NCBI GenBank assembly: GCA_024137785.1
Contig: JAHRHZ010000110.1
Coordinates: 62,001 to 126,000 of the forward strand
Direction of reading: 5' to 3'
Source: Ginglymostoma cirratum
Lineage: Eukaryota
Length of the DNA stretch: 64,000 nucleotides
The notes under the pieces were generated by a model. It worked only from the letters and a program-made list of their open reading frames with translations, was not told where the DNA came from and did not search any database. Both the position numbers and the translations under genes were made by a program. Shown here piece by piece: positions 19,591 through 60,193 of this stretch. How positions within the stretch are numbered: the first letter of the stretch is position 1; the number at the start of each line of letters is the position of its first letter.

Positions 19591-19859
19591 CCCCGTCTCC
19601 CACTCCCAGCTACATTGCAAAGAAAGTTTAGAGAACTATAAAAAATATATCAAATATGTCCCATAAAACAGCAATGGATTTATCCTGGCCTTCAATGAAT
19701 TTACGTGTACTTAGTTTCCGTCTTTTCCTGGGAAACCATCTTTTTCATTGTGACCTTCAGGAAAGGAGGCCCTTTTTTTGCCAGAAAAAAAAAATGTCAT
19801 TCATCTTTGTTTGCTTCATGCAAAAGAACACTAAGATTCCTTGGTTCTCTATTTTTTGG

Positions 19860-20790: not shown

Positions 20791-21239
20791 CGGCTGGAAA
20801 CCAGAGCGCAGCAAACCCCCAAAAGTCAGTTATGAACTCACTGGCGTATCTAGCAGCAATTGTGAGCATTTAAAACAGTTTCATTTTTGACCTATGGTTA
20901 AACAAACTGCCCTGATTTGCACATTAGATTGGCCAATGAAGAATCTGGTTCAAAAGTACTTAATTGGTTGTGATTTGGATGATGGTGAAAGGAGCTTTTA
21001 AAATACAAATACATCCTTCTTTCTCAATCCATTGATCTGGCTATTAATTTCTCTGCTCATAAAAGTGGATTCTTCCCATTCACTCTACTTCTCACTCATT
21101 TAGTTCAATTCAATCTCCGTTTTGATCCTATACAGGTTGACAAGAAATATAATGATTGTGGCATGGACAAGACAAGCCGAATGCTCCTCTGCCCTGTTGA
21201 AACCGTTCCATGAGAAAAGTTAAAATGTAGCATGGGGCT

Positions 21240-21321
21240 GTAGTTGTGGTTGAGTGGTTCAGGCAATGAATAAGAAATCCATTGGGATTTCCCCGTGCAT
21301 GTTTGAATCTCGCCGAATACG
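21240..21321 (+). tRNA. tRNA-Ser(AGA) pseudogene
   Basis: gtagttgtggttgagtggttcaggcaatgaataAGAaatccattgggatttccccgtgcatgtttgaatctcgccgaatacg. Confidence 0.85.
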
Positions 21322-22121
21322 TTTTCTGAACACTTTTCTTATTTCAAATAACCTTCTGATCAATGGGTTATCGCTCAAACTCGAGGAAATATGTCTCACC
21401 AACCCACCGGAGAGTCTGGTCATTTATTGACATTCGGGAAATATGAGTTCTGAACAAGAAACTTACCATACTCAAAACTTTAGCTCTGTTTCTCTTTCCA
21501 CAGTTACCACGAAAGATGTTGAGTTTTGACAGTATTCTCTGTGTTTAATCTACATAAACGATTTTGCACTAAATATCTTGAATTGCAGTCCTCTGGTAAC
21601 TGACCCTGGTCAGTGGCTGCAGTTTCTCCCCACCATCACCCTGCCTATTCACACCACTCCCATCCCCACTGTTGTGAACAGTCCAAGGAAATCTCTGGTT
21701 AAACTTTTTTGTTCCAAAGAGAACATTTCCGGTCTCGGGAATAATTCCACTAAACGGGATATCCTCATCACTGGACATGTTGCAAGGCGGAGGATTGTGA
21801 GGAGATTTTGGAAAAATATTGACAGTTGGAGGGATTGGAGGGGGTGGAGGTGGTGGGGGTGGTGCGATGTTAAGGAAGCAAAACAGAAAACCCGGTCTCC
21901 AGCTTTTTGACTCTTTAGAAACTCTTGGAAACGGGAATCACAGTAGAATGAAGAGTAACGTTTCCGATTTAGCACAAAAAGTCAAGACACCTGCCATTTC
22001 TTTTTAAGGCTGGGACATTGACTCTGATGTTCTCGGGACATGAACTAAATTGAGACATGGAAAAGATTCTCGTCTCTACACATCAGGAATTCAAATCTCA
22101 TTTCGGCTATGAGACAATGAG

Positions 22122-22252
22122 ACAAACAAATACTGCTGGAGAAACTCAGCAGGGTTGGCAGTACCGTTGGGATAAAATAGAGTTCTGAAACCTTGACTCT
22201 GATTCTCTGCAAGATCTGCTGACCTTTTCCTGAAATTTATGTTTTTGTTTTT
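22122..22252. mobile_element. Collapsed inverted pair of Penelope-like termini (subfamily 2)
   Basis: aaatactgctggagaaactcagcagg ... atctgctgaccttttcctgaaatttatgtttttg; duplicate at ~48838-48968. Confidence 0.5.
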
Positions 22253-22432
22253 AAATGAATGTTTATCCCATCTGTTGGGATGAAACAGCCGGATTTACCA
22301 TGTACTGAATTTAACCCTTTAGAAATCTGAGAAGTGATTGGATTCAAACAAACCGAGTCATGATTCACTCTTCCTCAGTTCCACAGAGAGAGAGAGAGAG
22401 ACCTGGAAAGCAGAGCCAGTACTGCGACGTGT

Positions 22433-22512
22433 GCAGTCGTGGCCGAGTGGTTAAGGCGATGGACAGGAAATCAATTGGCTATTCCTGTCCTGTTTAAATC
22501 CTGTGGACTACG
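22433..22512 (+). tRNA. tRNA-Ser pseudogene, anticodon GGA
   Basis: gcagtcgtggccgagtggttaaggcgatggaca-GGA-aatcaattgg..gactacg. Confidence 0.85.
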
Positions 22513-22876
22513 CTTGTTAGCTGAAAGAGATTTGCTCCTTGTATTCTTGTTTGCTGGAGGTATGACAGGAGAGGCAGCTGATGAATACTTCACCCAAATC
22601 GCTTATGAGGGGCATAGGCCAATCACTGCCTGTTAGAGAGCAAGAATCAGAAAACCTCACACGATTTAAGGTACATTTAAATGTACACTGACGTTGCTAA
22701 CTTTCGTGAGTCAATAAGGCGAGTGCCGGAAAAGGAGACAATAACAGTCAGGGGCTTGATTTCAACTGCAGCAGACTTGATGGGCTGAGGGTTTTTTTTC
22801 TGTGCTGGGGATCTCTTCTACCAGCTGCTGGGAGCTTAGGTTGTGAAGTGATAGGACAACGTTTGCAAAATGCAGC

Positions 22877-22950
22877 AGAGCCAGAAAGGGATCGAACCAA
22901 CTCTCCCCTGATGTATCTGTCAGACACGTTATCCATTGAGCCATTGGGAT
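22877..22950 (-). tRNA. tRNA-Arg(ACG)-type pseudogene
   Basis: Reverse strand ccaatggctcaatggataacgtgtctgac..atcag..ggttcgatccctttctggctc; anticodon loop scrambled. Confidence 0.75.
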
Positions 22951-23869
22951 TGGGGTAACTGGCACTGTGCATATTCCTTGAATCACTATCTGGGAGAATC
23001 AGGAAGATGCGATCCTGGTGTCTCTTTATCTAGCCTCTTGCAAACCTATCGCTTCTCAATCCCTCGTGCCTTACTTTTCCTGGCCCAGCTTTCCAGGTAA
23101 TGATTGGCTTCACAATCTGCCTGTGTTTCTATCAAGCAGCTCATTGACCTCGGAGCTGGGTAGTCAGAGAGAGCTGGAGGTGAGACGGGGACACAGGCAG
23201 AAAGAGATGCGACATGTCGTGTGTCAATTGCTTTTAGTTAGGGATGTCTATCGGAGACTGTCCTGTCAGATTCCCAGGATCTGCACTGATTGGGTCAGAG
23301 AGTATTCGAAATTGAAAGTTGCATGTGAGCAGCCTGTGAGAATATTTCAGCTCACTGTCCATTTTACGCCCCAGCTCGCAGAAACAGTTCTCATTGTCTG
23401 GAAAAGTTGCTTGCGTTCCACCTAAAGCTGACTTTTTACGCAGAATATTGTGCCTGGGAACAGAGAGCGGACGTCAAGGACATGGAGCAAGTATAATCCT
23501 GAGGTCTCTGTCACTCTCGGGGATGTGCCTTTGTGGGTGAAAATGAGGATGAGTTCCTCAAGGAGGTATTAACACAGTTTCATCATCTCAATCTTCGGGA
23601 AATTTGTTGTCTTACTTGACATCACAGGGATAAATGCATTGACATTTCCCTTCATAATGTCAAAGCACACAAGGCTGTGGACCAAACGCTGGAAACTGGG
23701 ACTAGAATGGATGGAGGTGTGAAGACTTGCACTGAAACGATGGGTCAAATGGTCTTCTTCCATGCTGTAAAACCACAGAGACGGAGAAACTGATCTGCAG
23801 CGAATATGATCAGAAATGAAAACGCAAACATAGGGTTATTAAGGAAAGACACGAGCCGATCTGTTGTAT

Positions 23870-23941
23870 TTCTTGCTGGTCTAGTGTTTAGGATTTAACG
23901 CTTTCACCGCCACTGCCCGGGTTTGATTCCCAGTTAGAGAA
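23870..23941 (+). tRNA. tRNA-Glu(TTC) pseudogene
   Basis: tggtctagtgtttaggatttaacgct-TTC-accgccactgcccgggtttgattcccagttagagaa. Confidence 0.85.
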
Positions 23942-24041
23942 TAGAAGTTCTGTTTTTGCTAACTTATCGTGGAGACAGCACTTCCGAATCATCAGGAGCT
24001 AGCAACTAATCTGATTTGTTCCAAACGTTCTGTAGATTAAC

Positions 24042-24162
24042 AAAAAACAAAGAACTGAGACAATCTGACACAAAACAGAAATTTGTAGAGAAACTCAGCA
24101 GGCCTGGCAGCATCTGTAGAGAGAAACAGAGCTGACATTTCGGATGCACTGACCGTTCGTCC
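24042..24162 (-). mobile_element. Penelope-like terminal fragment (subfamily 2)
   Basis: aaaacagaaatttgtagagaaactcagcaggcctggcagcatctgtagagagaaacagagctgacatttcgg; duplicate at ~46935-47050. Confidence 0.65.
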
Positions 24163-24359
24163 CTACCAGGTCAATTGTGCAGTTCTATGTTATTGTGTCG
24201 GGAGAGATTATTTGCTTTATCAGTCGAATCAACGTATTTATCAAATTCGCTGTCTCATTAGCTGACTCACGTCAACTTTACAACTCGAAAGGGACTTCAT
24301 AAACTGTAATTCTGCTTCCGTTGCCATGAGGTGGTGAAAGGCTCTGCTTAAATGATTGC

Positions 24360-24956
24360 GTTTTAATTTTACTTCCTGTCAGTTAGCAGCCATGTCGAAT
24401 GGAGAATTGGTCCTTTCAGCGCCTACCACAATATGTGTCTCCATTTGTCTCTCTTTGACTCTGCATAACCACCTCACCACCATTCACATTCTCTGACACT
24501 TCGTTGTCCACATTCACTATTTCGCATTTCTGCTCTTTGAAAAGTCTGAAATTCGGAGACACTTTGAGAGTTGAGTGTCTGGTGCTGGGCTCACATTCCT
24601 TGGATAATGTGTCCGATATGACTGAGGTAAGGAGTCATTTCTTGTCTCAAAAGATTGTGAATCCTCAGAATTCAAAACAGAATTCCTAATACACCAGAAA
24701 AATAAAATGCCACCATAATTACAATATTATAGCAACGTCTTTACTGTTGGTGTTAAAATGAATGAGAGTGATCTTTTCAAAGAGCAGAAGTGGGAAATGA
24801 GGGATGTGGACAATGGAGTGTCGTAGAATGTGAAAGGGGATGAGGTTGATACACAGAGTCAAAGAGAGACAAATAGAGACACATGCTGTCGTCGACACTG
24901 AAAGGATCAATTCTCCATTCGAAATGGCCGCTAACTGACAGAAAGGAAAAGAAAAA
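24360..24956. repeat. Local inverted repeat, ~185-bp arms (24360-24544 and 24772-24956)
   Basis: ctgtcagttagcagccat..tgctctttgaaaag vs cttttcaaagagcag..atggccgctaactgacag. Confidence 0.85.
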
Positions 24957-25426
24957 TGCCTGTGCAATTATTACAAAATTCCCCGGTAAGGCTACAGTTT
25001 ATCCAGCCTCACCTCGTTATTCCGACCAAACTGTGAATGAAGGGATGAGAATACAAGAAAAGGAGAAGCAGAACTGCTTGTGGAACGGCAGAAAGGAACT
25101 TCATGGTGAATCGAGGAGAAAAAGAGGAGACACTGAAACAGCCTCCTGACGACAAATGTATTTTCTTTGCCAGTAAAACTCATGGCTTCACAAATCAGGG
25201 ACCTTGAATTGAAGCAGTGACGGTGATTATCTTTGTTGGTTGTTCACACTGTGAATGTTACCATTGTTGCTCATGCCAGTGCTAACAGCACAACTCTACT
25301 GTATGTAAGCATCGAACATAAACCGGTGGAGATATAAAAGGTACTGCAGATGCTGGAGAATCCGAGATAACAAGCATGGGGCTGGATGAACACAGCAGGT
25401 CAAGCAGCATCACAGGAGCAGGAAAA

Positions 25427-25460
25427 CTTGACGTTTCGGGCCTAAACCCTTCATCAGAAA
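25427..25460 (-). ncRNA. Minimal hammerhead ribozyme motif
   Basis: Reverse strand ttt-CTGATGA-a-GGGT ttag GCCC-GAAAC-GTC-aag. Confidence 0.75.
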
Positions 25461-25468
25461 GGGTTGAT

Positions 25469-25868
25469 NNNNNNNNNNNNNNNNNNNNNNNNNNNNNNNN
25501 NNNNNNNNNNNNNNNNNNNNNNNNNNNNNNNNNNNNNNNNNNNNNNNNNNNNNNNNNNNNNNNNNNNNNNNNNNNNNNNNNNNNNNNNNNNNNNNNNNNN
25601 NNNNNNNNNNNNNNNNNNNNNNNNNNNNNNNNNNNNNNNNNNNNNNNNNNNNNNNNNNNNNNNNNNNNNNNNNNNNNNNNNNNNNNNNNNNNNNNNNNNN
25701 NNNNNNNNNNNNNNNNNNNNNNNNNNNNNNNNNNNNNNNNNNNNNNNNNNNNNNNNNNNNNNNNNNNNNNNNNNNNNNNNNNNNNNNNNNNNNNNNNNNN
25801 NNNNNNNNNNNNNNNNNNNNNNNNNNNNNNNNNNNNNNNNNNNNNNNNNNNNNNNNNNNNNNNNNNNN
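25469..25868. other. Assembly gap (400 N)
   Basis: Run of N. Confidence 1.
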
Positions 25869-25876
25869 ATCAACCC

Positions 25877-25910
25877 TTTCTGATGAAGGGTTTAGGCCCG
25901 AAACGTCAAG
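25877..25910 (+). ncRNA. Minimal hammerhead ribozyme motif
   Basis: ttt-CTGATGA-a-GGGT ttag GCCC-GAAAC-GTC-aag: canonical core, stem II, GUC cleavage triplet. Confidence 0.75.
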
Positions 25911-27242
25911 TTTTCCTGCTCCTGTGATGCTGCTTGACCTGCTGTGTTCATCCAGCCCCATGCTTGTTATCACACATAAACCGGTAACAGGTTCTGTAAA
26001 CTGAAAGGCCCCCAGCTGCGCAAAGAGACGGACTATTTGCACGAGGAACTTTTGCTGAGCCGAATGTTAACAGGTTCTGTTTTGCACTTGGTCAGTGCAT
26101 TCGGATATTGAGAGAAAGGCTGGTGTTTTGAGACGATCCAGGAATGCAGCCTTTTGTGTTTTCCTTCTCATCGATGTTTCAGGTGACATAGAAGATTGTC
26201 CTTCTGCGATTGTACTTCTGCGATTCTACCTTCAGGTCATCGTATCGAAACTTCGTCAGCTCCAGAGTTATCCGGTCAGACCCCAGACATACAGGTTTTA
26301 ATACAATTATTCTCAACATGTACCTTCATTTAATGCATAGAAATCTATGAAGAGATTGGAATCAAATAAACCCATGAATGATTTTCTCTTCCCCTGCTCC
26401 ACACAAAGTGAGACAGGGACAAGCAGTAGGATTTGACCCCGCACTCTTCAATCCTCAGCTGCCAGCAGAAGGCGGCGCTGCAAATTCAATCAGCCGCTTT
26501 GTGCCCATCCTCGGGAGGCAAGTTCCTCCAACCAGGGCCAAACCTATCAATACACCGAGCACAGGCTGAGGAAAACACAAGGAGATTCCATCCCGCTCAG
26601 TAAACTTCAGAGCAACGTTGACACAATGTCCAAGTGAGTAGAACCTACTCTGAGCCTCACTTCGGAAGCCTCAACTGATACAACGAGTGGAAACCTGATC
26701 CTTCTGAACAGCTGTTCCCGTGTGGAAAAGGGCAAAAATCCTTTTACGTTTCACAATGACTGCAGCAAATTCTTCTTGACCTTCAAATATATTTAACCGA
26801 ACTGTGAAAATCCAGTCCCCAGATGAGAAGCTGCAGAATTTGCTGATGCACTGAACAGACAAAGTGCTGAAAGTATTGAGTGAAACTGGGCAGACAGACA
26901 CGCATTTCACACAGTCTGTAGCAGAAATGACTGGGTTTATTGAAGCAGATTCACCGTCTCTCAGAGTGACTGGCAGTCGCATGAGCAGCTCAAGGTTGAA
27001 GGCACCGACATTAAAATATGAATTGTGAATGTCAAATCCCGGAACAAGCGCTGAAAATGGATTATAATGGTCTGAAGGAGGAACAGCTGAAAAGTTGGAA
27101 GATGGAACGGATGTTATTTGTGATTTAGAGAAATGAACTGAAAATTTGTGATTTTCCAGGTGGATCATCTTTCGCACATTGAAATTCGGTTGCAGGGGAT
27201 TTGGCTCAGTGTGAAAGGGGAAAATAACTAGCCTTTCATTGA

Positions 27243-27321
27243 GACTGGCGTGGTCAGTTGGTAGAGTATGATCTTCTTAATTTCAGGGTTGCGTGTTGTG
27301 GGTTCAAACCCCAGCTGGGCG
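27243..27321 (+). tRNA. tRNA-Lys(CTT) pseudogene with short insertion in the variable region
   Basis: tcagttggtagagtatgatctt-CTT-aatttcagg[gttgcgt]gttgtgggttcaaaccccagctgggcg. Confidence 0.8.
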
Positions 27322-30099: not shown

Positions 30100-32225
30100 A
30101 AGAACTTCGGAGAGGAAGTTGGGAATAGATGTTCTCAGAGAAATGCATAACAGAAATGCGGAGGTTGTTTAGGGAGCACTTGCTGCAGCTACTGGATAGG
30201 TTTGTCCCACTGAGGCAATGAAAGGATGGTAAGGTTAAGGAGCGTTGGATGACGAGACACGTGGAACATTTAGTAAAGATGAAGAAGGAAGCTTACTTAA
30301 GGTGAGGGAAACATGGAACGTATAGGGCTCCAGAGGTCGAAAAGGTAGCCAGGAAGGAATTGAAGAATGGAATTAGGAGAGCAAGAAGTGGGGTATGGCA
30401 GGTAGGATTTAGGAAAATCCCAAGGCATTCTGTACTTACGTGAGGAACACGAGGATGATCTGAGTAACGGTAGTGCCGATCAGAGATAGTGGAGGCAACT
30501 TGTGCACAGTGTGGGATGAGGTAGGGGAGGTCCTAAGTGAATATTTTGCTTCAGTATTCACCAGTGAGAGGGACCTTAACATTTGTGAGGATAGCATGAA
30601 AAAGGCAGATATACTCGAATAGGTTAATGTTAGGATGGAGGATGTGCTACAAATTTTGAAAGACATGAGGATAGATAAGTCCATGGGCCAGACAGGATAT
30701 GCCCAAGGTTGCGACAGGAAACGAGGGAAGAGAATGCTTCGCCTTTGGTGATGATTTTTGTGTCCTCACTATCTACTGGAGTACTACCAGATGATTTTAG
30801 GGTGGCAAGTGTTATTCCCTTGTTCAAGAAAGGGAATAGGGATAATCCTGGCAATTACAGAACAGTCAGTCATTCTGTGGTGGGCAAATTATTGGATAGG
30901 ATTCTGAGAGACAGTATTTATGATTATTTAGACAAGCACAATTTGATTAGAAATAGTCAATGTGGCTTTGTAAGGGGCAGGTCATACCTCACAAGACTTA
31001 TTGAATTATCTGAGGATGTGGAAAATTACATTGATGAAGATCGAGCAATGGAAGTGGTGTATATGGATTTTCGATAAGCATCTGAATAGTTTTCCCAAGG
31101 AGGGCTCACTTAGAAAGTTAGAAGACATTGGATTCATGGAAACTTAGTTGTCTGGCTACAGAATTTGCTGTCAAATCTGAGCCAGAAGTTTGCAATAGAT
31201 GGAAATTATTCAGCCTGGAGCTCGGAGATCAGTGATGGTCTGAAAGAATCTGTTCTGGAACCCCACTCGTTGTGATCTTTATAAATGAATTGGATGAGGA
31301 AGTGGAAGGGTGGGTTAGTAAGTTTGATGATGACATGAAGTTTGGTGTCATGATGGATAGTGTGAAGAGCTGTTGGAGGTTGCAACGGGACATTGACAAG
31401 ATGCAAAGCTGGGCAAAGAAATGGCAGATGGAATTCATACTGGAAAATTGTGAAGTGTTTCATTTTGGAAGGTCGAATTTAAATGCAGAATTTTGGGTTA
31501 ATTGCAGGATTCTTGGCAATGTGGAGGAACAGAGGGATCTTGGGGTCATCGGAAGACCCCTCAAAGTTGCTACCCAAGTTAATAAGGTTGTTAAGAAGGT
31601 GTATGGTGCGTTGGATTTCATTGGCAAGGGGATTGATTTTAAGAGGCGCAATGTTATGCTTCATTTACTTAAAACATTGGTTAGTCCACACTTGGATTAT
31701 TGTGTTCAGTTCTGATGGCCTCATTATAGGAATAGAGTGAAAGCTTTAGTGATGGAGCAGAAGAGATTTACCCGGATGCTGCCTGGACTGGAGGCCAGGT
31801 CTGATGAGGAAAGGTCGATGGAGCTAGAGTTTTTCTCTTTAGAGCGGAGAAGGATGAGCTGTGACTTGATACAGGTATATACGATTATGAGAGACACAGA
31901 TAGTGTGGATACCCAGAGACCTTTTTCCCAGAGCGGAAGGAACTATTATGAGGGGGCAAAATTTTAAGATGATGGGAGGAAAGTATAGTGGAGATTTCAG
32001 AAGTAGGTTTTTTACACAGAGAGTGGTGGGAGTGTGGAAGGCGCTGTCGGCGGTGGTAGTCGAGTCAGACATATTAGGGACTATTAAGCGAGCCTTGGAC
32101 AGGCGCATGGATGATCGTAAAACATAGAGTATGCAGGGTAGTTTGATCTTTGGGTAGGGTAATAGTTCGGCGCAACATCTTGGGCCGAAAGGCCTGTGCT
32201 GTACTCTTCTATGTTCTCTATGTTC
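30100..32225 (+). mobile_element. 5'-truncated CR1 LINE (~2.1 kb), RT region with stops and frameshifts
   Basis: LPDDFRVASVIPLFKKGNRDNPGNYR, VVYMDF, IFINELD..SKFDDD, HFGRSN, FFTQRVVGVW; (ttcta)n-like tail. Confidence 0.95.
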
Positions 32226-37660: not shown

Positions 37661-37685
37661 GGCCAGGGGAGAGAATGTTGTGCTT

Positions 37686-37805
37686 CGGGTCGGGACCCGA
37701 AACGTCAAAATTCCTGCTCCCCTGATGCTGCCTGGCCTGCTTTGTTACTCCAGCTCCACACTGTGTCATCTCTGACTCCAGGATTGGAATTTCCTATTGT
37801 CTCTG
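37686..37805 (+). mobile_element. Penelope-like terminal fragment, hammerhead 5' half missing
   Basis: gggtcgggacccGAAACGTCaaaattcctgctcccctgatgctgcctggcctgc. Confidence 0.75.
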
Positions 37806-38099
37806 ACAGAACATTGTGAACGTGTCTCCTGGGCTAATAGGGATGGAGTTTATAAACTACTTTTACAGGGAGTGGGGAAGGGAATATTTACACACAGGAA
37901 ACTCAAAATCACAGAAATGTTTGTTTCATCTGAAATTCTGTCCCAGACTAAATGAGATGGCTTTTTCAAACTTATTTTACAGCATGCTGGAAGAGGATTT
38001 GCTGACTAGGAACTCAAATCAAATGACATGCCAAGATCTAACCAGGCTATTTTATCCTCTATTGATTCAGCGCTAGATATGATTGCCCTTTGATTGTAA

Positions 38100-45643: not shown

Positions 45644-47150
45644 AGACTTCCATCTAAACCACCCTGGTCACTGTCAGATTCAGCATTGCATCTCTCATGC
45701 TTGTGCACATGATCCCCTCGGCTCTATCTCGGTTTTGTCACATTGTCTTAGTTTATAATGCACAGACTATCCCGTCATCTATTACATTGCTGTTTCTAAT
45801 ACATGAAGCCCTACCTTACAGGGCACAGTCTTCTCTCTGTAGCTCTGTATTGAAAGCAATGGTCTTGTCAAGCAGCGGTCATGAGTTTACTTCTAACTGG
45901 AGCATATAATTATGTTTGTGCAGCTGCTGCATCCAACATCAAAGGAGCACGTTCAATATCGTCTGAAATTATGACAATATCATTTCCTCCACAGGCCAGC
46001 AGTTACTTGAGTTGAGGTATGAAAACTGCAGGCTCACAAGGAAACAATGGGGGACCAATACGGAGGGTGGAGCGGCCGAATGCTTTTTTCTATTTGCTGT
46101 AAACAGATTCTGGTTTTGACGTGTGAAATGCAACAATATAACCTAAATGGGTGAAATCCCACTTTCTGGGTGTTGGTATCTGCTGAGGCTTCTGTCACCT
46201 TCTGAGAAATATGTCTGTGTGTTACCTTATGAGGGTAAAAATGTGATCCAGTTACCCAAGGGAATGTGAGCATCTCAAACGGCCGATGAGGAGAGGTTGG
46301 ATAAACTGATCTTTCGAAAGATCACCACCATTCATTTTTACATCAACAGTAAAGATATCGCTTTAATATTATAATTGTGGTGTCATTGTGTTTTTTTTTT
46401 CTGGTGGATTATGAATTCTATTTTGAGTTCTGAGGATTCACAATCCTTTGAGACAAGAAATGACTCCTTACCTCAGTCATAACAGACAGACATATTTTCC
46501 AAGGAATGTGAGCCCAGTACTAGACATTCTACTCTCAAAGAGTCTCCGAATTTCAGACTTTTCATAAAGCAGAAATGGCTAATCGGTCATGTGGACAATG
46601 GAGTGTCGGAGAATGTGACAGGGGGTGAGGTGGATCCGCAGAATCAAAGAGAGACAAATATTGTGGTAGTCACTGAAAAGACCAATTCTCCATTCGACAT
46701 GGCTGCTAACTGACAGAAAGGAAAAGAAAAAGGCAACCATTTAACGAGAGCCTTTCACCACCTCGTGGCAACGGAAGCAGAATTACAGCTGATGAAGTCC
46801 CTTTCAAGTTGTAAAGTTGACGTGAGTAAGTTAATGAGTGAGGAATTTTGATAAATACGTTGATTCGACAGATAAAGCGTATAATTTTTCCATACATTAT
46901 TATATAGAAATGCATAATTAACCTAGTAGGGAACAACGGTCAGTGGATCTGAAACTTCAGCTCTGTTTCTCTCTACAGATGCTGCCAGGCCTGCTGAGTT
47001 TATCTACCAATTTCTGTTTTGTGTCAGATTGCCTCAGTTCTTTGTTTTATGTTAACCTGCACAGTGTTTGGGACAAATCAGATGAGCTGCTAGCTTCTGA
47101 TCAGTCAGAAGTACTGTCACCACGATAAGTTAGCACAAACAGAACTTCTT

Positions 47151-47222
47151 TTCTCTGACTGAGAATCAAAACCGGGCAGTGGCGGTGACAGCGCTAAATC
47201 CTAACCACTAGACCACTAGAAA
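47151..47222 (-). tRNA. tRNA-Glu body pseudogene, anticodon reads GTC
   Basis: Reverse strand tttctagtggtctagtggttaggatttagcgct-GTC-accgccactgcccggttttgattctcagtcagagaa. Confidence 0.85.
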
Positions 47223-48151
47223 TACAACAGATTGGATCCTGTCTTTTCATAATGACACTGCTTTTACATTTTCATTTCTGAAAATATTCACACAGATCGG
47301 TTTAGCCGTCTCTGAGGTTTTACAGCATGGAAAAAGACCATTTGGCCCATCGTTTCAGTGCAGCTCATCAAACCTCCACCCATTCTAGACCTAGTTTCCA
47401 GCATTTGGCCCATTGCCTTGTGTGCTTTGACTTTCCGATGGCAAATGTCAATGCATTTATCCTTCTGATGTCAAATAACACAACAAATGGGCCCCAAGTT
47501 TCAGATGGTAAAACTGTGTCAATACCTACTTGAGGAATTCATACTCATTTTCACCCACAGAGGGAGATATGGGCACATCCCCGAGAGTAACAGAGACCTC
47601 AGAATTATACCTGCTTCATGTGCTTCATGTCTGCTCTGCACCAAGGGAATAAGCTTGTGCGATAAAAAGGCAGCTTTAGATGGAACACAAGCAACTTCTC
47701 CTGACAATGAGAACTGTTTCCGTGAGCAGGGAGATAAAATGGACAGTTGAGCTGAAATAGTCTCACAGGCTGCTCACGTGCAGCTTTCAATTTCGAAAAC
47801 TCACAGACCCAATCATTGCAGTCCCTGAGAATCTGACAGGACAGCTTCCGGCAGACATCCCTCACTAGAAGCAACTGACACACGACATGTCGCACGTCTT
47901 TCTGCCTGTGTCCCGGTCACACCTCCAGCTCTCTCTGACCGCCCAACTCCGAGGTCAATGAGCTGCTTGATACGAACACAGGCAGATTGTGAAAGCAATT
48001 ATTATCTGGAAAGCAGAGCCAGAAAATGTAAGACACTAGGGATTGAGAAGTGATGGGTTTGCATGTGGGTGGGTAAAGGGACATCAGGATCTCATCTTCC
48101 TGATTCTCCCAGAGAAAGGTTCCAGGAATATGCACAGGGCCAGTTACAGCA

Positions 48152-48225
48152 ATCCCAATGTCTCAATGGATAACGTGTCTGATAGATAGATCAGGGGAGA
48201 GTCGGCTCGATCCCTTCCTTGCTCT
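48152..48225 (+). tRNA. tRNA-Arg(ACG)-type pseudogene (copy of 22877)
   Basis: ccaatgtctcaatggataacgtgtctga..gatcag..ggctcgatccc. Confidence 0.7.
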
Positions 48226-48575
48226 GGTGCATTTTGCAAACGTTGTCCTGTCACTTCACAATCTAAGCTCACCGCAGCTGGTCTAAGAAGTCCCCAGCAC
48301 AGAAAAAGATCCCTCATCCCATCAGGTCTGCAGCAGATCAACTCCAGCCCCGGACTGTTCTCGTCTCCCTTTGCAGCACTTGCCTTATTGACTCACGAAG
48401 GTTAGCAACGTCAGTGTACATTTAAATGTACCTTCAATCGTGTGGGGTTTTCTGCTTCTTGCTCTCTAACAGAGAGTGATTGTCATATACCCCTCATAAC
48501 CGATTTGGGTGAAGTATTCATCGGCCTCCTCCAGCAAACAAGAATACGACGACCAAATCCCTTTCAGCTCTCAAC

Positions 48576-48655
48576 CGGAGTGGACAAGATTCAAACAGGG
48601 CAGGCAAAGCCAATTGATTTCCAGTCCATGGCCTTGACCACGCGGCCATGGCTAC
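48576..48655 (-). tRNA. tRNA-Ser pseudogene, anticodon GGA
   Basis: Reverse strand gtagccatggccgcgtggtcaaggccatggact-GGA-aatcaattgg. Confidence 0.82.
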
Positions 48656-49761
48656 ACACGTCGCAGCACTGGCTCTGCTTTCCAGGTCTCTGTCTCTCTG
48701 TCTGTGGAGCTGAGGAAGAGTGGATCATTACTTGGCTTGTTTGAATCCGATCACTTCGCAAATTTCTGAAACGTTAAATTCAGTACATGGTAGATCCGGC
48801 TGTTTCATCCCAACAGATGGGATAAACAATCATTTAAAAACAAAAACATAAATTTCAGGAAAAGCTCAGCAGATCTAGCAGAGATTCAGAGTCAACTTTT
48901 CAGAAATCTGTTTTATCCAACAAATGCTGGCAAACCTGCTGAGTTTCTCCAGCAGTATTTGTTTGTCTCATTGTCCCATAGCCGAAATGAGATTTGAATT
49001 CTGATGTTCAGGAATGAGAATCCTTTCAACGTCTCAAGTCAATTCATGCCCCGGGAACATCGGAGTCAATGTTCCAGCCTTTAAAAGAAAGGACAGGTGT
49101 CTTGACAGTTTGTGCTCAGTCGGAAAATTTAACCTTCATTCTCCTGTGATTCCGGTTTCCAAGATTTTCTAAAGATTCAAAAAGCTGGAGACTAGGTTTT
49201 CTGTTTTGCTTCCTTCACCTCGCTCCACCCCCACTACCCCCCACTCCCAATCCAACTGTCAATATTTTCCCAAACTCTCTTAACAATCTTCCGCCTTGCA
49301 ACATTTCCAGGAATGAGGAAATCCCGTTTAATGGAGTCATTCCTGAGATCGGATATGTTCTCTTTGGAGCACAAAGTTTAATTAAAGATTTCCTGGTGCT
49401 GTTCACAGCAGTGGGGGAGAGAATGGCGGGAATAGGCGTTGTAATGGTCGGGACAAACTGTAGCCATTGACCAGGGTCAATTACCAAAGGAATGCAATTC
49501 AAGAACCAAGAACTGCCAAACCATTTATATAGATTAAACACAGAGAATACTATAGAATATCAACACGTTTAGTGGTACCTGTGGAAAGAGAAACTGCTAA
49601 AATTTTGAGTATGGTAAGTTTCTTCTTCAGAAATCGTGTTTCCTGAATGTCAATAAATGACTGGACTCTCCGGTGGGTTGTTGAGATGGATTTCCTCGAG
49701 TTTGAGCGATAACTCATTGATCAGAAGGTTATTTGAAAAAAAACAAATCGCCTTCAAGCAA

Positions 49762-49844
49762 CGTAGTCGGCCGGATTTGCACTTCGGTGGGGGAAAGCAC
49801 AATTGGTTTCAAATTCATCGCTTTCACCACTCGGCCACAACTAC
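49762..49844 (-). tRNA. tRNA-Ser pseudogene (anticodon TGA)
   Basis: Reverse strand gtagttgtggccgagtggtgaaagcgatgaatt-TGA-aaccaattg..ccggccgactacg. Confidence 0.82.
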
Positions 49845-51919
49845 ACGAAAGCTGTGGTGTGTGAACACTTCTCATCGAGTTGTTTCAACAGGAAAGAGGA
49901 GCATTCAGCTTGTCTTCTCCCTGCCACAATCCATATATTTCTTGTCATACTCTATTTGGTCAGAACGGAGATTAAATTGAACGACATTTTTGAGGAAAAG
50001 AGTGAATGGGAAAAATCCATTTTTTTGAGCAGAGAGATTAAGAGTCAGATCAATTGATTTAGAAAGAAAGATGCATTTGTATTTTGAAAGCTCCTTTCAC
50101 CACCATCTCAATCACAACCAATGAGGTACTTTTGAAGCAGATTCTTCATTGGCCAATCTAATGTGAAAATCAGGGCAGTTTGTTTAACCATCAGTCAAAA
50201 ACGATACTGTTTCAACTACTTACAATTGGCACTAGATTCGCCAGTGAGTTCATTACTGACTTCGGTGGTTTGCCGTGCTCTGATTTACTCTGATTCAATC
50301 TCAGGGGAAGGAGTCGCCCATTTAACACAGAGATGAGGGGGATGTTCTCCCATTCAGAGGGTTACAAATCTGTAGACTTCTTCCAACAGAGTTCTGATAA
50401 TGCTGATTGTATTCAAGGCTGAAATAGACAGAGATTTAGTCATTTAGGGATTCAAGGGACACTGTGATAAGGCAGAAAAGTGCAATTGAGCTTTAGCCAT
50501 GATATCATTTAAAGATGTAATTGACCTAATAGACCAAAAGACTTCCATCTGGCCCAATGTCTTATCTGTCATTTGAAAAATGTGAGACAATTGTAAAGGA
50601 AGTAATAGAGAACGTTTATAAAAGGTTATTGAAGTCAAACACAGTCAACATCGTTTGTTGAAAAGCAAATCACACTCTGAAGAAAGGCCTAGGCCCAAAG
50701 TGCCAGTGTTTCTGTTCCTCTGATGCTGCTTGGCCTGATGTGTTCATCTCGCTCTACACCTTGTTATCTCAGATTCGCCAGCATCTGCAGTTCCTACATT
50801 CTCTGATAATTTTGCAAGACTTCTTTGGTAATATTACAAGCACAGTTGATAAAGGGAAACGGAAGAAGAAGTGCATTTGAATTTTTAGCAGGCACTCAAT
50901 AAGGAGCCATTTCTCAGGTCATTGCTCAAGATAGGAGTTTACGTTGTTCGGTATAAATGAGCATGGGCTGCCCATTGTTAATTAACATAAAATGCAGAAT
51001 CGAGATTAATGGGTATTTTTCAAGTTGGGAAGATATGTTTTGTGGAGTGTCAGAATGGTCAGTCATAGGGCTACAATTATTTATCTCTGTATTAAAGACT
51101 TGGAGGAAGTGCCAGCGTGTAATGTGTTCAGTTTGGCTGAAGATACGAAATAGACGGAGGGCATGTTGTGATAAGGACATGTGAATCTCCAAAGGGATAT
51201 TGATAGGTTGAGTAGGTGGACACAATCTTGGCTTATGCAGTTTCATGTCGGCAGTGTGAGTTCTTGCACTTTGGTAGGAAGAATCAAAAGGTAGACTACT
51301 GTTAAAATCTGGAGAAATTTCCAAAGAATAATGTACAAAGGAAACTAAGTGTTCTTGTGCATGAAGCAAACAAAGGTGAATGGCATATTTATTTTCCTGG
51401 CAAAAAATGGCCTCCTTTCCTCAAGCTCACAATGAAAGAGATGATTTCCCAGGAAAAGACAGAAACTAAGTACGTGTAAATTAATCGAAGGCCAGGATAT
51501 GCACAGTGTTGCTCTCTGGGACATATGTGATATATTCTTTATGATTCTGTAAACTTTATTTGCAATGGAGCTTGGAGTGGGAGAGGAGAAATTAATGTCA
51601 CCCGTGATTATTGTCATCACTTTATCTGTCACACACAATATCTGTTTGTTTATACGCTTGTTTTCATGTTGTGGTTATTGTTAGTATGCTTGTAGACTAC
51701 ACCCACTGGTGACTTTTTTCCCCTCACTATTCCTCATCGCGACGTAAACAGATTCTACATGCTTATCTCCTGAATTAAGGTAATCTCTAACCATTGCCCA
51801 AATGTCACCAAAAACTTCGGCATTTCACACGCCACTGTCTGCCTTCTTGCAATAGTAATTGATAATCTTCTGTGTTACAATTGAAAATATTAAAAGAAAA
51901 TAAAAGGGAAAACAAACAC

Positions 51920-51990
51920 TGCCGTGATTCGGATTCGAGTCGAAGCTGCTGCGGCTGTGTGCAGAGTATTAGCCATTATACGACCATGGC
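51920..51990 (-). tRNA. tRNA-His-derived pseudogene (copy of 19193)
   Basis: Reverse strand gccatggtcgtataatggctaatactctgcacacagccgcagcagcttcgactcgaatccgaatcacggca. Confidence 0.8.
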
Positions 51991-54485
51991 GCTTAACAAC
52001 GAGGCACCAGGAAACGTACAATAAGCACACTGTTGGGGGGATGACAGGAGCAGCACCAGAAACACAACAGAAATACTTATCAAATAGCAAACTGAAACGA
52101 GTGGCCAAAATCTATTGAATTAGGGGCCATCGAGAATTTCAATGTCCAGTATTCAGAGTATACAAAACTGATAGTGATAGATTTCGATACATTAAACATA
52201 TTAAGAAATCATGGGATAGTGCAGAAAAATGGCAGTGAAGCAAAAGTTCGTCCATAATTTCATTGATCAGTGAGGCAGGTTCAATGGGCTGAGTGGCTAC
52301 ATCATATTTGTTATGTTTCAAAATAAAAACATTACATTCTTAGATTCACTTGGCAAATGTAATTAATATTCGGGTGGAAATTATGTAATTCTTCTGGGCT
52401 GCGGTCTTTTCCGTATTTCTCAATTGGAAGTCGCGTTTTACATCGGCTACATCAGCAGTTTCCTCACACAAGGAAGTAACCACTTCTGCAGAAGAGCATT
52501 TAACCCCAATTCACAGCCCTGGAATCAGAGAAATTCAGTGCCCTAACACTCTAACATGCCCTAATATTCAAGGACTCTGCAGGTTGCAGCGGAAATTTAC
52601 AAGAATGTTGCCAGGACAGGATATGGTGAAACTTTGCAGAACGTTTGGTTAGGCTGGGGCTGTTCTCCATGGAACACAGGAGGCTGACTGGAGTTTATAA
52701 TCACATAACAGCATTTATTAACATTCAAAATTCTTCCGGGCCTTGATCGCGCAGATATGGACAAATGGTTTCTCGGAACATGAGAGAGAAGGACTATAGG
52801 ACATAATACACGAATGTGGTTTAGCCTATTTCATTCGAAAACGAGGAGGAATTTATTCGCTCAGAGGCCAGTGAAGTTGTGGAATTCTTTCCTGCAGACG
52901 GCTGTTGAGGCTGGATTGTTGGGTATTGTGAAACTGAGCTAGACAGACGTCTAATCAGTAAGATGTTCAAGAGTTATCCAATTCAGGCAGCAGGATGGAG
53001 TTGAAGATTGCCATTGAAAGGTGCATCAGACTCGTTGGGTCTACTATTTCTGTTCCTAATTCAGTCCTATTTAATCGACAGGTCCAAGATTGTTTTTGGT
53101 GGGGAGGTGGGTGGACATGGATAAAATTATAGTCTTAGTTTCACGCATTCACGCCTTGTAGCTAATCACGGCCTTTTCACGCCGCTCCCTCTGCATTTGT
53201 TTCCCACCGATGATATTTTGGATTCTTCCAACTGAATTGTAAGTCACTCGAAGGAAGATTGACTGCCAGAACCACTCCACAAACACTCAACAACCTTGCT
53301 TATCTTTGATAAGAAGCCCTGTCCACTGTGACTACTCACACAAAAGCAACATGGAGTCATTCTCTGTCTGAATTTTAAACCAAGGCGACAGTGGAGAAAG
53401 CTCCTTCCTAATGAGGAGATCATTAAAGAAGCGACAACTTAACAGTGAAAGTTCGTTCAGCAGCATTTCTTCTGCCTTGTTTCTTATTCCTTGTTTCAGT
53501 GAATTAAATGTGCCTATCAGTCTGTCACAGACTTTCACTTTTGTTGTTTTTACAGAGTCGTGCTTTTACACTTAGAAAATGCAGGGAATTCTCACAATCC
53601 TGTCCCTCCATACACGCGAATAAGCATTTCTATGATCGAAATAAAACATGTCTCACAGTATGAAGACATCTTCATTGTCTTGGAAAACCTTCAGAAGGAG
53701 TCCTCTCAGTTATCTGTTGTAATCTTAGCAAAAAGATCATTCTCGCTTGGATTCTGATCGTCACAGAGAGTTCAGGGAGATCGTGAAGATCCGATGCATC
53801 TTCAGTGTGTCCTTTTTCTCGAATTCCAAAATTAGGCGATTTTCACGTTCGTGACTTTAGACTCATTGTTTTTGGTCCTTGCAGTACATCCACATGGTAT
53901 ATATTTCCTGGAGACTTTGCCTGTAACTCACACAACAATCAGGAAGTGGACAGCACCAACCAGCATTGGAACGAAACTCATTGACTGACATTGGATTTTA
54001 CTGACACAGTCTATAAAATTCAGTCTCATCGTCAATGTGAAGAGGGGCTGTGGGATTGCAGTTTCCTCCCCTTCTGTTCAATAAGGATCATTCCAACTGT
54101 AAAAGGAATCGTTGTTGATCAGAAACATTTTTTCCTGAACTCACTGCCATCTGCTTTAACATGATGAGCTGAAATCTCATTATAGTTTGAAACGTAAAGT
54201 TGAGTGTTTACAAATTAGGTGAGAAAATGATGGTATAATGTTAGCAGCATCGCACTGTTCCTTGCTGAATGAAGTGGCTGCCCAAAGGGAGGCGGTTGTG
54301 TGTTTAAATCCCACGATGAGCATTTTATGTTTGGGCAACCAACTTCCCTGCAGCAGTGTTTCCAAAATGAAACAGACAGGAAAGTACCACGTGTCATTGA
54401 ACAGCCACTGAATAGGAGAAACACTATCAAGCAGCACCCCCTAACAACAAGCTCTGCTTTGCTATAAAGGAGAAGTGCTTCAACT

Positions 54486-54555
54486 GAGCTGAGTGGCGAT
54501 GAGCACGCAACGTTCTAATCTAGAGTCGTACATGCTACCGTGGCGCTACCAACTC
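54486..54555 (-). tRNA. tRNA-Trp-derived pseudogene, anticodon CTA
   Basis: Reverse strand gtagcgccacggtagcatgtacgact-CTA-gattagaacgttgcgtgctc. Confidence 0.75.
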
Positions 54556-55071
54556 ACAATTGATGGCCGTACTGCTGTGCAGAATTAAGTGAAGTGATCA
54601 TACCCCAATGAGAAACTGTTATGAGAAACGGAAGTAGGGAGCTCGCGCACTTTCTGCATCTTTTCTCCCCGCTCTCTACACGTGTCTCCAGTCGTCTTTA
54701 TTCACTCTCCACCCGTTTGCCTGTGCCTTTTTCTCCCTCAGCCTGCCCTTCTCCACCCCATTCTTTCAGCCTCCCTCTTCTTGCCATTTAATTTCCTCGT
54801 TGAAAATTCTGTTCTGAAGTGGGGAGATTGATTCCAGTCTGTGTGTTACAGGGTGGATCCAGGAATTACTCTCGAACCTCCATCAGGCACAACGAGAAAT
54901 AAACAATTTGGTTGTGGGATGGGAGTTGGGGTAGATTCCAATACAGAGACGTGCAGACATTTTCCCCAAATGTTCATATGAATAAACGACAAAACAAGTA
55001 ACTGACTGTATTCCTGCAATTGCATCATTAGAAGCCTAATGTTCTTGGTTACAAACAAACCTTTCGTCAGC

Positions 55072-55146
55072 GACCCTGGCACAATGGATATAGTAATGAC
55101 GTCTGTTTAGAGATCAGAAGATTGTAGTTTTCTCTCTGGTCAAGTG
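55072..55146 (+). pseudogene. Decayed tRNA-Arg(ACG)-type (copy of 15890)
   Basis: tggcacaatggata..gacgtctgtttagagatcagaagattgtag. Confidence 0.6.
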
Positions 55147-55383
55147 CAGCTCATGACTTCTTTATACTTCCGAATTACTATTTCTCATTGGCCTGAAGCC
55201 GCGATGAGGTTTGGATTTCTGTTGCGCATGAACGAGAATCCTCTCACAGTCTACAATCAGGAAATGTTACCAAGGACATCAGAGTGAATGTCCAAGCGTT
55301 ATCAAAGGAGTGGAAGCTGAAATAGTCCCACAAGCTGTTCATGGGCACCTTTCCATTTCCCAAACCCACTGACACAATCATGC

Positions 55384-55608
55384 AGAGATAGTAGGAGCTG
55401 TAGATGCTGGAGAATCTGAGATAACAAGGTGTAGAGCTGAATGAACACAGCACGCCATGCAGCATCAGAGGAGCAGGAAAACTGAAATTTCGGGCCCAGA
55501 CCCTTCTTCAGAAAATGTCTCGGGTCTAGGCACGAAACGTCAGCTTTCCTGCTCCTCTGATGCTGCTTGGCCTGCTGTGTTCATTCAGCTCTACACCTTG
55601 TTATCTCA
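55384..55608. mobile_element. Penelope-like inverted terminal pair (~90-bp hairpin arms)
   Basis: 55417-55505 is reverse-complementary to 55522-55608; minus-strand core CTGAAGA-a-GGGTC tg GGCCC-GAAA. Confidence 0.85.
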
Positions 55609-57418: not shown

Positions 57419-57517
57419 TCTGAGAATGGGTCACTGGACCTGCAACGTTAACTCTGATGTTTTCTTCACAGCTGGTGCGGGACCAGCTGAGCTTTTCCAG
57501 CAACTTTGTCTTTTTTC
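57419..57517 (+). mobile_element. Penelope-like terminal fragment (subfamily 2), hammerhead decayed
   Basis: tctgagaatgggtcactggacctgcaacgttaactctg..gctgagcttttccagcaactttg. Confidence 0.65.
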
Positions 57518-58245
57518 GAAAGTCGATGCAGTCTCACCTGTCCAAATGTCCTCATCTCTACATATGGGTTGCTGTGATCTCTGACTGTATGCTTTGTAGT
57601 CTTAATTTGGATTTTGAAATTGTCTGCACCAAAATGTGCGGCTCATTAACATCGGTTCAGAAGAGAGGTGGTCTCAATACGACTTCTTTTAAAAACCCTG
57701 TGTTCTGTTCTCGAGTCTGGAAAACAATTCCTCACAGATAATTTTACATTCACGCTGTCACGGGGATTCTCATTCCGTGACATGACCCACGCTACAACAA
57801 CTGTCATCATCATTTCTATGTTAAAGAACACTACTATTTTCTTACATCTCTCAAAGAAGAGTGAAATTAGCGTCAGTGCATCTCACTAATTGGATACAAA
57901 ATCGTAGCAAGAAGCAAAGCGTTTTTGCTGATGGGTGCTTTGTCACTGATAAACTGTTTCTCGTGTTGTTTCACAAGGCTCGGTACGAGGTTGCTTCGTA
58001 TAGACGTTGGAGCAGGAAGAGGCCAGGCGGTCCTTCCAGCCTGCTTCATTATTCAATATGATCATAGGGTTCACCCAACTCAGTAGCCTGTTTCACTTTT
58101 CACAGCAGATCCTTTTTTCTCTTGAACCCGAAGAACCATGACTAACTCCTTCTTATAAAAGTAATCAATGTTTTAGCTTCGAGATAACATGGTGTAGAGC
58201 TGGATGAACACTGCAGGCCAAGCAGCATCATAGGAACAGGAAAGG

Positions 58246-58277
58246 TTGACGTTTCGGGCCGAGACCCTTCTTCAGAA
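58246..58277 (-). ncRNA. Minimal hammerhead ribozyme motif
   Basis: Reverse strand tt-CTGAAGA-a-GGGT ctcg GCCC-GAAAC-GTC-aa. Confidence 0.72.
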
Positions 58278-58595
58278 ATGGGGGAGGAGAAGAGGGTTCT
58301 GAAATAAATAGGTAGACGGGGGAGGCGGATATAAGATGAATAGAGGAGAATATAGGTGAACAGGAGACAGACCGGACAAAAGGGCGGGGATGGAGTCAGT
58401 ACTGGTGAGTGTAGGTGGGGTGGTAGGGGCGAGATTGGTCAGTTCATGAGGACGACAGGTCAAGGGTGTAGGATGAGGTTAGTTGGTAGAAGATGGGTGT
58501 GGGGATTGAGGTGGGAGGAGATGATAGGTGGGAGGAAGGACAGGTTAGGGAGGCGGGGACGAGCTGGGCTGGTTTTTGGATGCGGTAGGGGGAGG

Positions 58596-58912
58596 TTAGA
58601 TTTTGAAGCTTGTGAAGCCCAAGTAATACCATTGGGTTACAGGGTTCCCACATAGAATATGAGTTGCTGTTCCTGCAACCTTCGGATAGCATCGTTGTGG
58701 CACTGCAGGAGGCCCAGGCTGGTCATGTAGTCCACGGAATGGGAGGGGTAGTTGAAATGGTTCGCGACTGGGAGGTGCAGTTGTTTTGTACGAACCGAGA
58801 GTAGGTGTTCTGCAAAGTGGTCCCCAAGCCTATGCTTGGTTTCCCCGATGTAGAGGAGGCCACAACGGGAGCAGCAGATGCACTATACCACATTGGCGGA
58901 TGTGCAGGTGAA
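58596..58912 (-). pseudogene. GIY-YIG endonuclease domain of the Penelope-like element, with stops and frameshifts
   Basis: FTCTSANVV*CICCSRCGLLYIGETKHRLGDHFAEHL..LPVANHFN..EQQLIFYVGTL*PNGI. Confidence 0.9.
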
Positions 58913-59255
58913 CATCACAAGCTTCAAAATCTCCCTTCCCACTACTGCTTCACAAAACCAGCCCAACTCGTCCCCGCCTCCCTAACCTGTCCTACCTCCC
59001 AATTATCCCCTCCTCCCACCTCAAGCTCCAACCCCATGTCCAACCTACTAACCTCATCCAGACCCCTTGACCTGCCGGTCCTCCCTGGCCTGACCTATCT
59101 CCTCCCTACCTCTCCACCTACACTCACCTTTACTGGCTCCATCCTCACCCCTTTGACCGGTCTGTCTCCTCTCCACCTATCTTCTCGTCTATCCATTTTC
59201 TATCCGCCTCCCACTCTTTCCCTATTTATTTCAGAACACCCTTCCTCTCCCACAT

Positions 59256-59287
59256 TTCTGAAGAAGGGTCTATGCCCGAAAAGTCAA
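59256..59287 (+). ncRNA. Hammerhead motif, right arm (ACGT palindrome mutated)
   Basis: tt-CTGAAGA-a-GGGT ctat GCCC-GAAAA-GTC-aa. Confidence 0.5.
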
Positions 59288-60193
59288 GCTTTCCTGTTCC
59301 TACGATGCTACTTGGCCTGCTGTTTTCATCCAGCTCGACACCATGTTATCTCAGATTCTTCGTCATCTGCAGTTCCTACTATCTCTAAAATGTTTTAGCT
59401 TCAACCGTTTTGTGTACCACAAAATTCTTCAGTCTCATTGCTTTCTGGTGATGATATTCCCCTCACCTCAGATCTAAATGGATTGCAGCTTATCCTCCAA
59501 CTGTGATCTCTTGTTGTGGACTCTCCAGTGATTGGGAGCACATATCGAAATTCTCTGCGCTATACAATCTCATTAGCACTGCAAGAAAGGGAATTGCTGT
59601 TTCGGCTCTCACAACTGAATCGATTTACCCAATATCTTGCTCAACTCCCTGCTTCCAGTAACCAATTCAATCAGGAACAAATCTATCAAAGGCTTTGATT
59701 TGCGATAAGGACTGAGGCTGCAAACTTGCAGAAGTCATTTCTTTCCACTATCACAATCTCCCCAGGAGCTCGTACAAATGGATTGGCGGATTTGTTTTCT
59801 CCTACACGCTCACTTTTTTGGCGACAACGTTCTAACTGCTCAATGATATAAAACTAATTCTTTTCGATCATTGGACCGACTTGTACGAATTTGCATGCAG
59901 CAAATCGAATACTATGAAACAGATAAACAGCCTCTTCCCTGGAATTCTTACATCGCTATTTCAGCGATATGGAGAAGATCGTCAAGCTAACACATCGTCT
60001 GCTTTCTCTCTCCTCAGATGATCGTTCTCCTGCTGAAAAATTATGCTTTTCGATTGATAATTGAGATATTTCCCACGGGTAACGATCATTATCCAAACAC
60101 AGAGACTGGTCTGGTCCAATAAACTCTGTTTTACTCAACAACATTTTCCCGCAGCCTGATGCCCAACAATCCCTGCCCCATATCAATAAAAGC

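Follow-up and report, generated by a model that had tools for sequence, protein, structure and literature searches.

Architecture of the insertion

The window analysed here is a stretch of 64,000 nucleotides from the shark Ginglymostoma cirratum. At 58167–59402 it carries an insertion that is almost certainly derived from a Penelope-like element (PLE). In it, the 3' end of the element is present twice, as two 5'-truncated copies placed head to head and enclosed by one 14-bp target-site duplication. The main copy (735 nt) includes part of the endonuclease and has no tail, while the second copy (474 nt) ends in a tail. The features of the locus are the following:

58167–58180: left copy of the target-site duplication, an exact direct repeat of 59389–59402, adjoining the left arm
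58181–58615, minus strand: left arm, formed by the main copy's 3' end without a tail and colinear with proteins P0001 and P0002 at their C-termini
58248–58275, minus strand: left minimal type I hammerhead motif, which matches the descriptor only with a stem I minimum of 2 bp
58616–58914, minus strand: unpaired centre, a GIY-YIG remnant with CCHH residues (coding match 58915–58625)
58915: head-to-head junction, where the main copy starts on the minus strand and the right arm on the plus strand
58915–59352, plus strand: right arm, an inverted second copy of the 3' end, more deeply truncated and 84% identical to the left arm
59258–59285, plus strand: right minimal type I hammerhead motif, which passes the published descriptor
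59353–59388, plus strand: one-sided 36-nt tail, common to other tailed copies
59389–59402: right copy of the target-site duplication, an exact repeat of 58167–58180

An initial annotation of this DNA had described inverted arms of about 435 bp and an exact 14-bp flanking duplication, and both are present. The arms are identical at 368 of 438 aligned columns and are spaced 299 nt apart. The flanking 14-mers agree at 14/14 positions and occur nowhere else in the window, with a composition probability of 7.9e-9 per position pair. The arms had been interpreted as inverted termini. They are indeed inverted, but they represent two copies of the element's 3' end, and the left arm contains the last codons of the open reading frame (ORF), a C-rich 3' untranslated region, the hammerhead, and approximately 65 nt beyond it. 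The tail had also been overlooked. It is found at the right end only and has no left counterpart, which makes the element asymmetric: the left 14-mer adjoins its arm directly, while 36 nt separate the right arm from the right 14-mer. The tail sequence is shared with other tailed copies of the repeat, except for its last two bases, which may be untemplated.

At the junction, the two copies have one base in common, with neither a spacer nor a palindrome. Both arms carry three substitutions that none of six other repeat copies in the window shows, and a 1-nt insertion present in both arms occurs in only one of those six. One duplication around both copies, together with the substitutions shared by the arms, points to one source and most likely to one event. 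Under equal decay, an exact 14-bp duplication is unlikely to persist beside arms that differ at 15–16% of sites (probability approximately 0.09–0.10). No empty site or interrupted host repeat was found at the flanks.

Differences between the arms are rich in G/T (A/C) transversions, with 25 transitions and 42 transversions, compared with 743 and 786 in five other repeat pairs. The departure is borderline (p = 0.08 raw; p = 0.003 with a composition model judged to over-correct), and an editing signature is not claimed.

The endonuclease remnant and its relatives

The centre of the insertion encodes the decayed GIY-YIG domain that had been proposed from the sequence. On the minus strand, positions 58915–58625 read as the C-terminal endonuclease of a PLE, interrupted by two stops (58885–58883 and 58639–58637) and followed by a one-base frameshift near 58625–58622. 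This remnant is 81% identical over 97 residues (E 4e-46) to amino acids 347–443 of P0001, a whale-shark protein with reverse transcriptase (RT) and GIY-YIG domains. Amino acids 355–432 of P0001 match the Pfam GIY-YIG family at 23.2 bits, against a cut-off of 22.6. The match to P0001 extends into the left arm after a one-base shift in the window. P0002, a zebra-shark PLE protein, spans the whole arm, up to codons that spell the hammerhead. An independent shark locus thus shows the same connection of ORF, arm, and motif.

Homology searches place the remnant among a larger set of PLE proteins. The first search retained 26 proteins among 39 candidates, the three named ones being from whale, zebra, and bamboo shark. 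Searching with P0001 gave 96 longer proteins, and the best 78 of these 96, which are 42–56% identical, were analysed. All 78 of these distant full-length relatives match the window only at 58600–59000. A profile was built from the 72 relatives whose endonuclease could be cut out, and it scores the remnant at 102 bits (E 5e-31), the next best score being 8.7. This score and the close homologues bear out the assignment to Penelope-like elements. The annotation had also expected the central frame to match GIY-YIG profile models. A direct Pfam scan returned no family for either of two readings of the remnant, an outcome overturned by the close homologues. A PDB search with the homologue alignment gave only two unrelated matches (E 0.68–0.79), and the ESM Atlas returned GIY-YIG clusters at 0.94 (24% of members), which is taken as a lead only.

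The remnant keeps 20 of the 24 positions that are at least 80% conserved among relatives, including both Cys and both His of the CCHH motif. However, the first Tyr has become a stop, and an Arg that is invariant in 72/72 relatives is a His. Consequently, the endonuclease is dead.

The parent element is likely to belong to the Neptune clade, judging from its protein relatives. A zinc finger of the form CX2-5CxxC, located in the linker that joins RT to the endonuclease, is present in P0001 and seven other homologues from the first search (8/26), and in 74/78 of the distant relatives; the copy at 58167–59402 is truncated just downstream of it. This finger marks the Neptune and Nematis clades alike, while the PLE clades reported in vertebrates are Neptune and Poseidon. 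Neptune is therefore reached by elimination. RT is found in most full-length relatives, with RVT_1 below cut-off in P0001, where it lies upstream of the endonuclease, and in P0020. Since RT is missing from the truncated copy itself, the clade assignment rests on the homologues and on a linker motif that Nematis shares.

Hammerhead motifs in the arms

Each arm carries the hammerhead motif as the initial annotation had written it, with all eleven core positions intact. The left motif combines a full core with a 4-bp stem II and an intact ACGU palindrome, and its stem I has only 2 bp; the putative cut lies between 58248 and 58247. The right motif also has a full core and a 4-bp stem II, with a 3-bp stem I that includes one G-U pair, and its putative cut follows 59285. 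The ACGT palindrome named in the annotation is intact on the left only; the right arm reads AAGT, broken at position 15.2, which is C in 6/9 copies. The equivalent motif of a second head-to-head pair, near 25 kb (25880–25907), shows neither the short stem I nor the broken palindrome.

The published minimal-hammerhead descriptor was re-implemented with a stem I of at least 3 bp and a stem II of 3–7 bp. Both arms contain the minimal type I core (CUGANGA...GAAA...UH) and a stem II of the required length, and the right arm and the 25-kb pair have a stem I of sufficient length. The full descriptor finds three matches in the window (59258–59285 and both 25-kb arms), against 0.015 expected from 200 shuffles. 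Accepting a stem I of at least 2 bp adds 58248–58275 and 55484–55511, giving five matches against 0.045 in shuffles. With no stem I requirement, the window has five sites, compared with 0.15 on average and at most 2 in 200 dinucleotide shuffles. A search for the Rfam hammerhead families, which the annotation had named as a check, found no match over the 64-kb window at E up to 1, and membership of these families was rejected.

Conservation of the motif was assessed in nine of the ten copies, one of the identical 25-kb arms being dropped; the nine include 20375 and 50676, which do not count as independent copies. The core had been expected to be more conserved than its flanks, and it is not: departures from the majority occur in 5/85 core cells, against 43/566 downstream (p = 0.82). 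This comparison is weak either way because dead copies decay evenly. Loop II is the variable part, with 8/36 departures (p = 0.007 against downstream). Covariation of the stem pairs does not exceed shuffles, 248 of 500 of which reach the observed score. By simple pair counting, 87.5% of cells are paired, against at most 54% in slid controls, with some of the stem I cells being non-homologous flank. Six short segments spanning hammerheads fold no more stably than shuffles (z-scores between -1.1 and +0.5), and the hammerhead fold was not of lowest energy in any of the three short monomers tried. A 7-bp stem in the consensus fold of the 3' 100 nt of seven copies, with its 3' strand in the tail, is not claimed, as 0/14 pairs show a compensatory change.

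Other copies in the window

A profile search yields ten strong matches in the window, namely the two arms, the two arms of the 25-kb pair, whose 5' ends are lost in a gap, and six short copies, five of which are independent. Across the 64 kb, the matches form three head-to-head pairs, and four copies stand singly. Over the stretch from the hammerhead to the end, the short copies are 76–91% identical to the arms, and the window holds no other copy of the arms' inner 340 nt. Together with the zebra-shark protein that reads into the hammerhead codons, this identity upholds the proposed link between the abundant repeat of approximately 130 bp and a parent PLE.

All six short copies start 20–32 nt upstream of the predicted cut, and none starts at or past it, so cleavage did not set these ends. 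The starts fall between approximately four bases ahead of the core and the beginning of stem II. The sample is small (six copies, five of them independent), and the boundaries differ in quality. One is confirmed by a duplication located by script (13 bp, one mismatch) and a second by a duplication of approximately 14 bp seen by eye (three mismatches). The other three events have no detected duplication, and their starts therefore rest on loss of similarity.

Several of these copies have features of their own. The pair at 25316–25985 has a tail on the left only, a 12-bp duplication, and an undamaged hammerhead motif. Its arms are 100% identical over 103 nt flanking a gap of 400 N, which may reflect either a young insertion or an assembly effect. 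A third head-to-head pair, at 55384–55608, consists of two short copies approximately 7 nt apart that interrupt another repeat; no duplication was found around it, and the continuation of the interrupted repeat is missing. Single short copies at 1900–2063 and 37669–37818, with duplications of 13 bp and approximately 14 bp, both have an extra CTTC that separates the truncated start from the upstream duplication. This tetranucleotide complements part of the hammerhead core and could be a tiny inversion or chance. Weaker profile matches at 24087–24161, 46931–47006, 5143–5214, and 57420–57502 (E 9e-8 to 0.08) resemble sister families of greater age, in which the hammerhead-like core has decayed and stem II differs. 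Among 59266–59386 and the other tailed copies, most have two frames that are open all the way from the hammerhead to the end of the tail; in other PLEs, the corresponding part codes for the beginning of the following ORF. A check of whether distant full-length ORFs start with the frame that runs from hammerhead to tail gave no match outside the endonuclease.

Comparison with known elements

The insertion shows several features of endonuclease-bearing PLEs. There are terminal repeats of the 3' end with an optional tail, here as inverted arms and a 36-nt extension, and the target-site duplication varies in length, with 14 bp at this insertion and two further copies having 12 and 13 bp. The C-terminal GIY-YIG retains both Cys and both His. 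Neptune elements, as described by Craig et al. (bioRxiv 2021.04.23.441226), share a C-terminal GIY-YIG that has a CCHH motif and a pair of Cys between GIY and YIG, as well as the CX2-5CxxC linker, which is seen here in the close homologues. They also share 5' truncation, an inverted truncated copy, a one-sided tail of 30–40 bp, a variable duplication, and a hammerhead in the terminal region. In contrast to the elements described there, the shark copy has no RT, linker, or direct tandem repeat, its target is not a microsatellite, and its endonuclease is dead.

The motifs resemble the minimal hammerheads that Cervera and De la Pena (2014, PMC4209133) report from metazoan PLEs, where opposite-strand pairs lie 100–700 bp apart. 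Shared features are the CUGANGA core plus an extra base, the G10.1-C11.1 pair, the absence of stem III, and, in the left arm, the palindromic positions 15.2-16.2. The 5'-truncated PLE at a Cotesia bracovirus locus (Fig. S4A of that paper) has its second motif on the opposite strand, which is the arrangement found here. However, the shark motifs are spaced approximately 980 bp apart, and their 4-bp stem II and 2–3-bp stem I fall at the short end of the published range. None of the 56 motifs in Fig. S3 of the same paper is from a cartilaginous fish.

The Anolis Poseidon element PAc (Frangieh et al. 2024, PMC11167929) is also similar, in that its hammerhead is followed within approximately 90–130 nt by two end points that bound the tail, and in its AT-rich target. 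It belongs to another clade and, unlike the shark copy, is intact and biochemically tested. Non-LTR retrozymes (Li et al., bioRxiv 2026.07.22.740005), reported from one chondrichthyan genome, are likewise short, non-coding derivatives of PLE ends with type I hammerheads. They form head-to-tail tandem arrays, whereas the copies in the window are all single or head to head; with no tandem array, retrozyme identity is ruled out. An expansion of PLEs has been reported in the whale shark (bioRxiv 443036).

Origin of the insertion

The locus is best explained as a single, old, and inactive insertion of an endonuclease-bearing PLE, most likely of the Neptune clade, a reading to which we assign a probability of approximately 0.85. 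The layout of its two copies suggests that a two-primer mechanism probably produced it. The GIY-YIG domain of the parent would nick both target strands 14 bp apart, and each 3'-OH would prime reverse transcription on element RNA. Priming at an inner start site would give the tail-less end, and priming at an outer site 36 nt further 3' would give the tailed end. Both cDNAs would stop early and be joined at 58915, and fill-in would generate the 14-bp duplication. The hammerheads would be passengers from the terminal region of the parent. There, acting as dimers or aided by the element's protein, they probably process tandem transcripts. L1 twin-priming also yields an inversion inside one duplication via priming from both target strands. 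L1, however, inverts a non-overlapping upstream piece, while the shark insertion holds the same 435 nt twice.

The pair at 25330–25977 repeats the pattern, with a one-sided tail, a similar tail-less end point, and one 12-bp duplication. An inverted truncated copy with a one-sided tail of 30–40 bp has been described as the typical PLE layout (bioRxiv 2021.04.23.441226; PMC3846280). The purified Anolis PLE protein is reported to cut and extend both target strands, to start at two sites inside the RNA, one at either limit of the genomic tail, and to be a predicted dimer. Its hammerhead is reported to cleave only with the protein, cleavage being unnecessary for insertion. These in vitro observations concern a Poseidon-clade protein, from another family than the shark PLE (PMC11167929).

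The inverted arm could also have arisen when a single cDNA or RNA primed itself or folded back, or by later repair. Self-priming has been proposed for rotifer Penelopes on the basis of palindromes at their inverted junctions (PMC3846280), and the diagnostic substitutions common to both arms would be expected from one template molecule. The junction at 58915, however, has neither a palindrome nor a spacer, and self-priming therefore fits less well than priming on two strands. Further, the centre is present only in the longer copy and the tail only in the shorter, so that neither can have been the other's sole template, from which we infer that a simple cDNA fold-back is excluded. Overall, an origin of this kind is unlikely, though it deserves some weight. 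Far less credible is a MITE-like or fold-back DNA element that moved as one 1.2-kb unit via its inverted ends. Long inverted termini and a flanking duplication would suit such an element, but the tail makes the ends asymmetric, one arm is colinear with the PLE endonuclease that makes up the interior, and the window holds no further copy of the centre or of the arms' inner part.

Possible ribozyme activity and present-day function

An RNA read through the locus is predicted to pair along the whole length of the arms (-781 kcal/mol). With one sense motif per strand and arms that pair throughout, a cis dimer cannot form; opposite-strand motifs, a long hairpin, and the lack of a cis dimer had all been anticipated in the initial annotation. 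Ribozyme activity at 58167–59402 is very probably absent: each strand has one sense motif, each motif is damaged, and each can pair with its antisense, so that the hammerheads most likely stand idle at the locus. A survey of all 34 long open frames in the window recognised no host gene and gave only two sub-threshold matches; short exons would escape such a survey.

Two contrary readings of the motifs pull in opposite directions. At one extreme, the hammerhead-like string would be a chance or vestigial likeness that was never a ribozyme in this PLE family. A core no better conserved than the downstream sequence, covariation no higher than in shuffles, the missing Rfam match, and a short stem I would all agree with this. 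It is nonetheless hard to reconcile with three full-descriptor sites where 0.015 were expected, with a position that is usual for PLE hammerheads, and with variation that falls in loop II. In addition, the build agrees with the published consensus and with that of a coral Neptune motif, which has a 3-bp stem I and a 4-bp stem II (PMC4209133), and the idea is accordingly given little credence. At the other extreme, the locus would be functional today, either because the duplex of approximately 435 bp feeds small-RNA or A-to-I pathways, or because a hammerhead cleaves a host transcript. The stability of the predicted hairpin and the complete core in both arms speak for a function, as do reports that approximately 30% of whale-shark PLEs are intronic (bioRxiv 443036) and that small RNAs arise from rotifer Penelopes (PMC3846280). 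Set against this, no host gene was recognised among the long open frames, the arms are 16% diverged, the left stem I has 2 bp, the right palindrome is broken, and the hammerhead was not the preferred fold of the short monomers. Monomeric minimal hammerheads described in PMC4209133 showed no cleavage, and cleavage failed in 8/9 Xenopus retrozyme dimers. A present-day function is thus improbable, and the reading as an old, inactive insertion is preferred.

Significance

The layout of the insertion is already published for PLEs, including 5'-truncated and inverted copies, a one-sided tail, a duplication, and opposite-strand minimal hammerheads. PLE fragments of such build are to be expected in cartilaginous fish, and a single locus is of little weight. 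No published description of this shark PLE family was found; a Repbase or Dfam entry may well exist, and Lunse, Weinberg and Breaker (2016) may include shark motifs. The locus does tie an abundant, unexplained shark repeat to a Neptune-type parent, and it extends the explicit record of minimal PLE hammerheads to cartilaginous fish.

Most worth pursuing, rather than 58167–59402 itself, are the inverted pairs with a single tail and the way in which copy ends cluster at the hammerhead. If the clustering holds genome-wide, it bears on the origin of inverted PLE ends and on the purpose of the hammerhead. As a tentative and rather doubtful proposal, a discrete unit of approximately 120–130 nt from hammerhead to tail, densely represented in shark genomes, might have its 5' end set where RT stops just past a folded hammerhead instead of by ribozyme cleavage, and the one-tailed inverted pairs might record two-strand priming by a PLE dimer with two internal start sites. 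Were this true, a shark genome would offer natural data on a very large scale for the mechanism of PLE insertion, which is unsolved, and the hammerhead could be argued to serve no less as a structural stop or a protein-binding element than as a catalyst.

Other features of the window

An inverted segmental duplication of approximately 9 kb links 15649–24787 and 46306–55386, which are 83–87% identical, and through it the repeat copy at 20375 was duplicated as 50676. A tandem-repeat open frame of 311 codons at 12507–13439 has no Pfam match, and a 201-codon frame at 26674–27276 has a weak match to Fer4_18. A sub-threshold RVT_1 fragment at 30679–31074 is probably LINE debris. Degenerate tRNA-like matches at 13465–13538 and 16496–16567 are possibly pseudogenes or the heads of SINEs.
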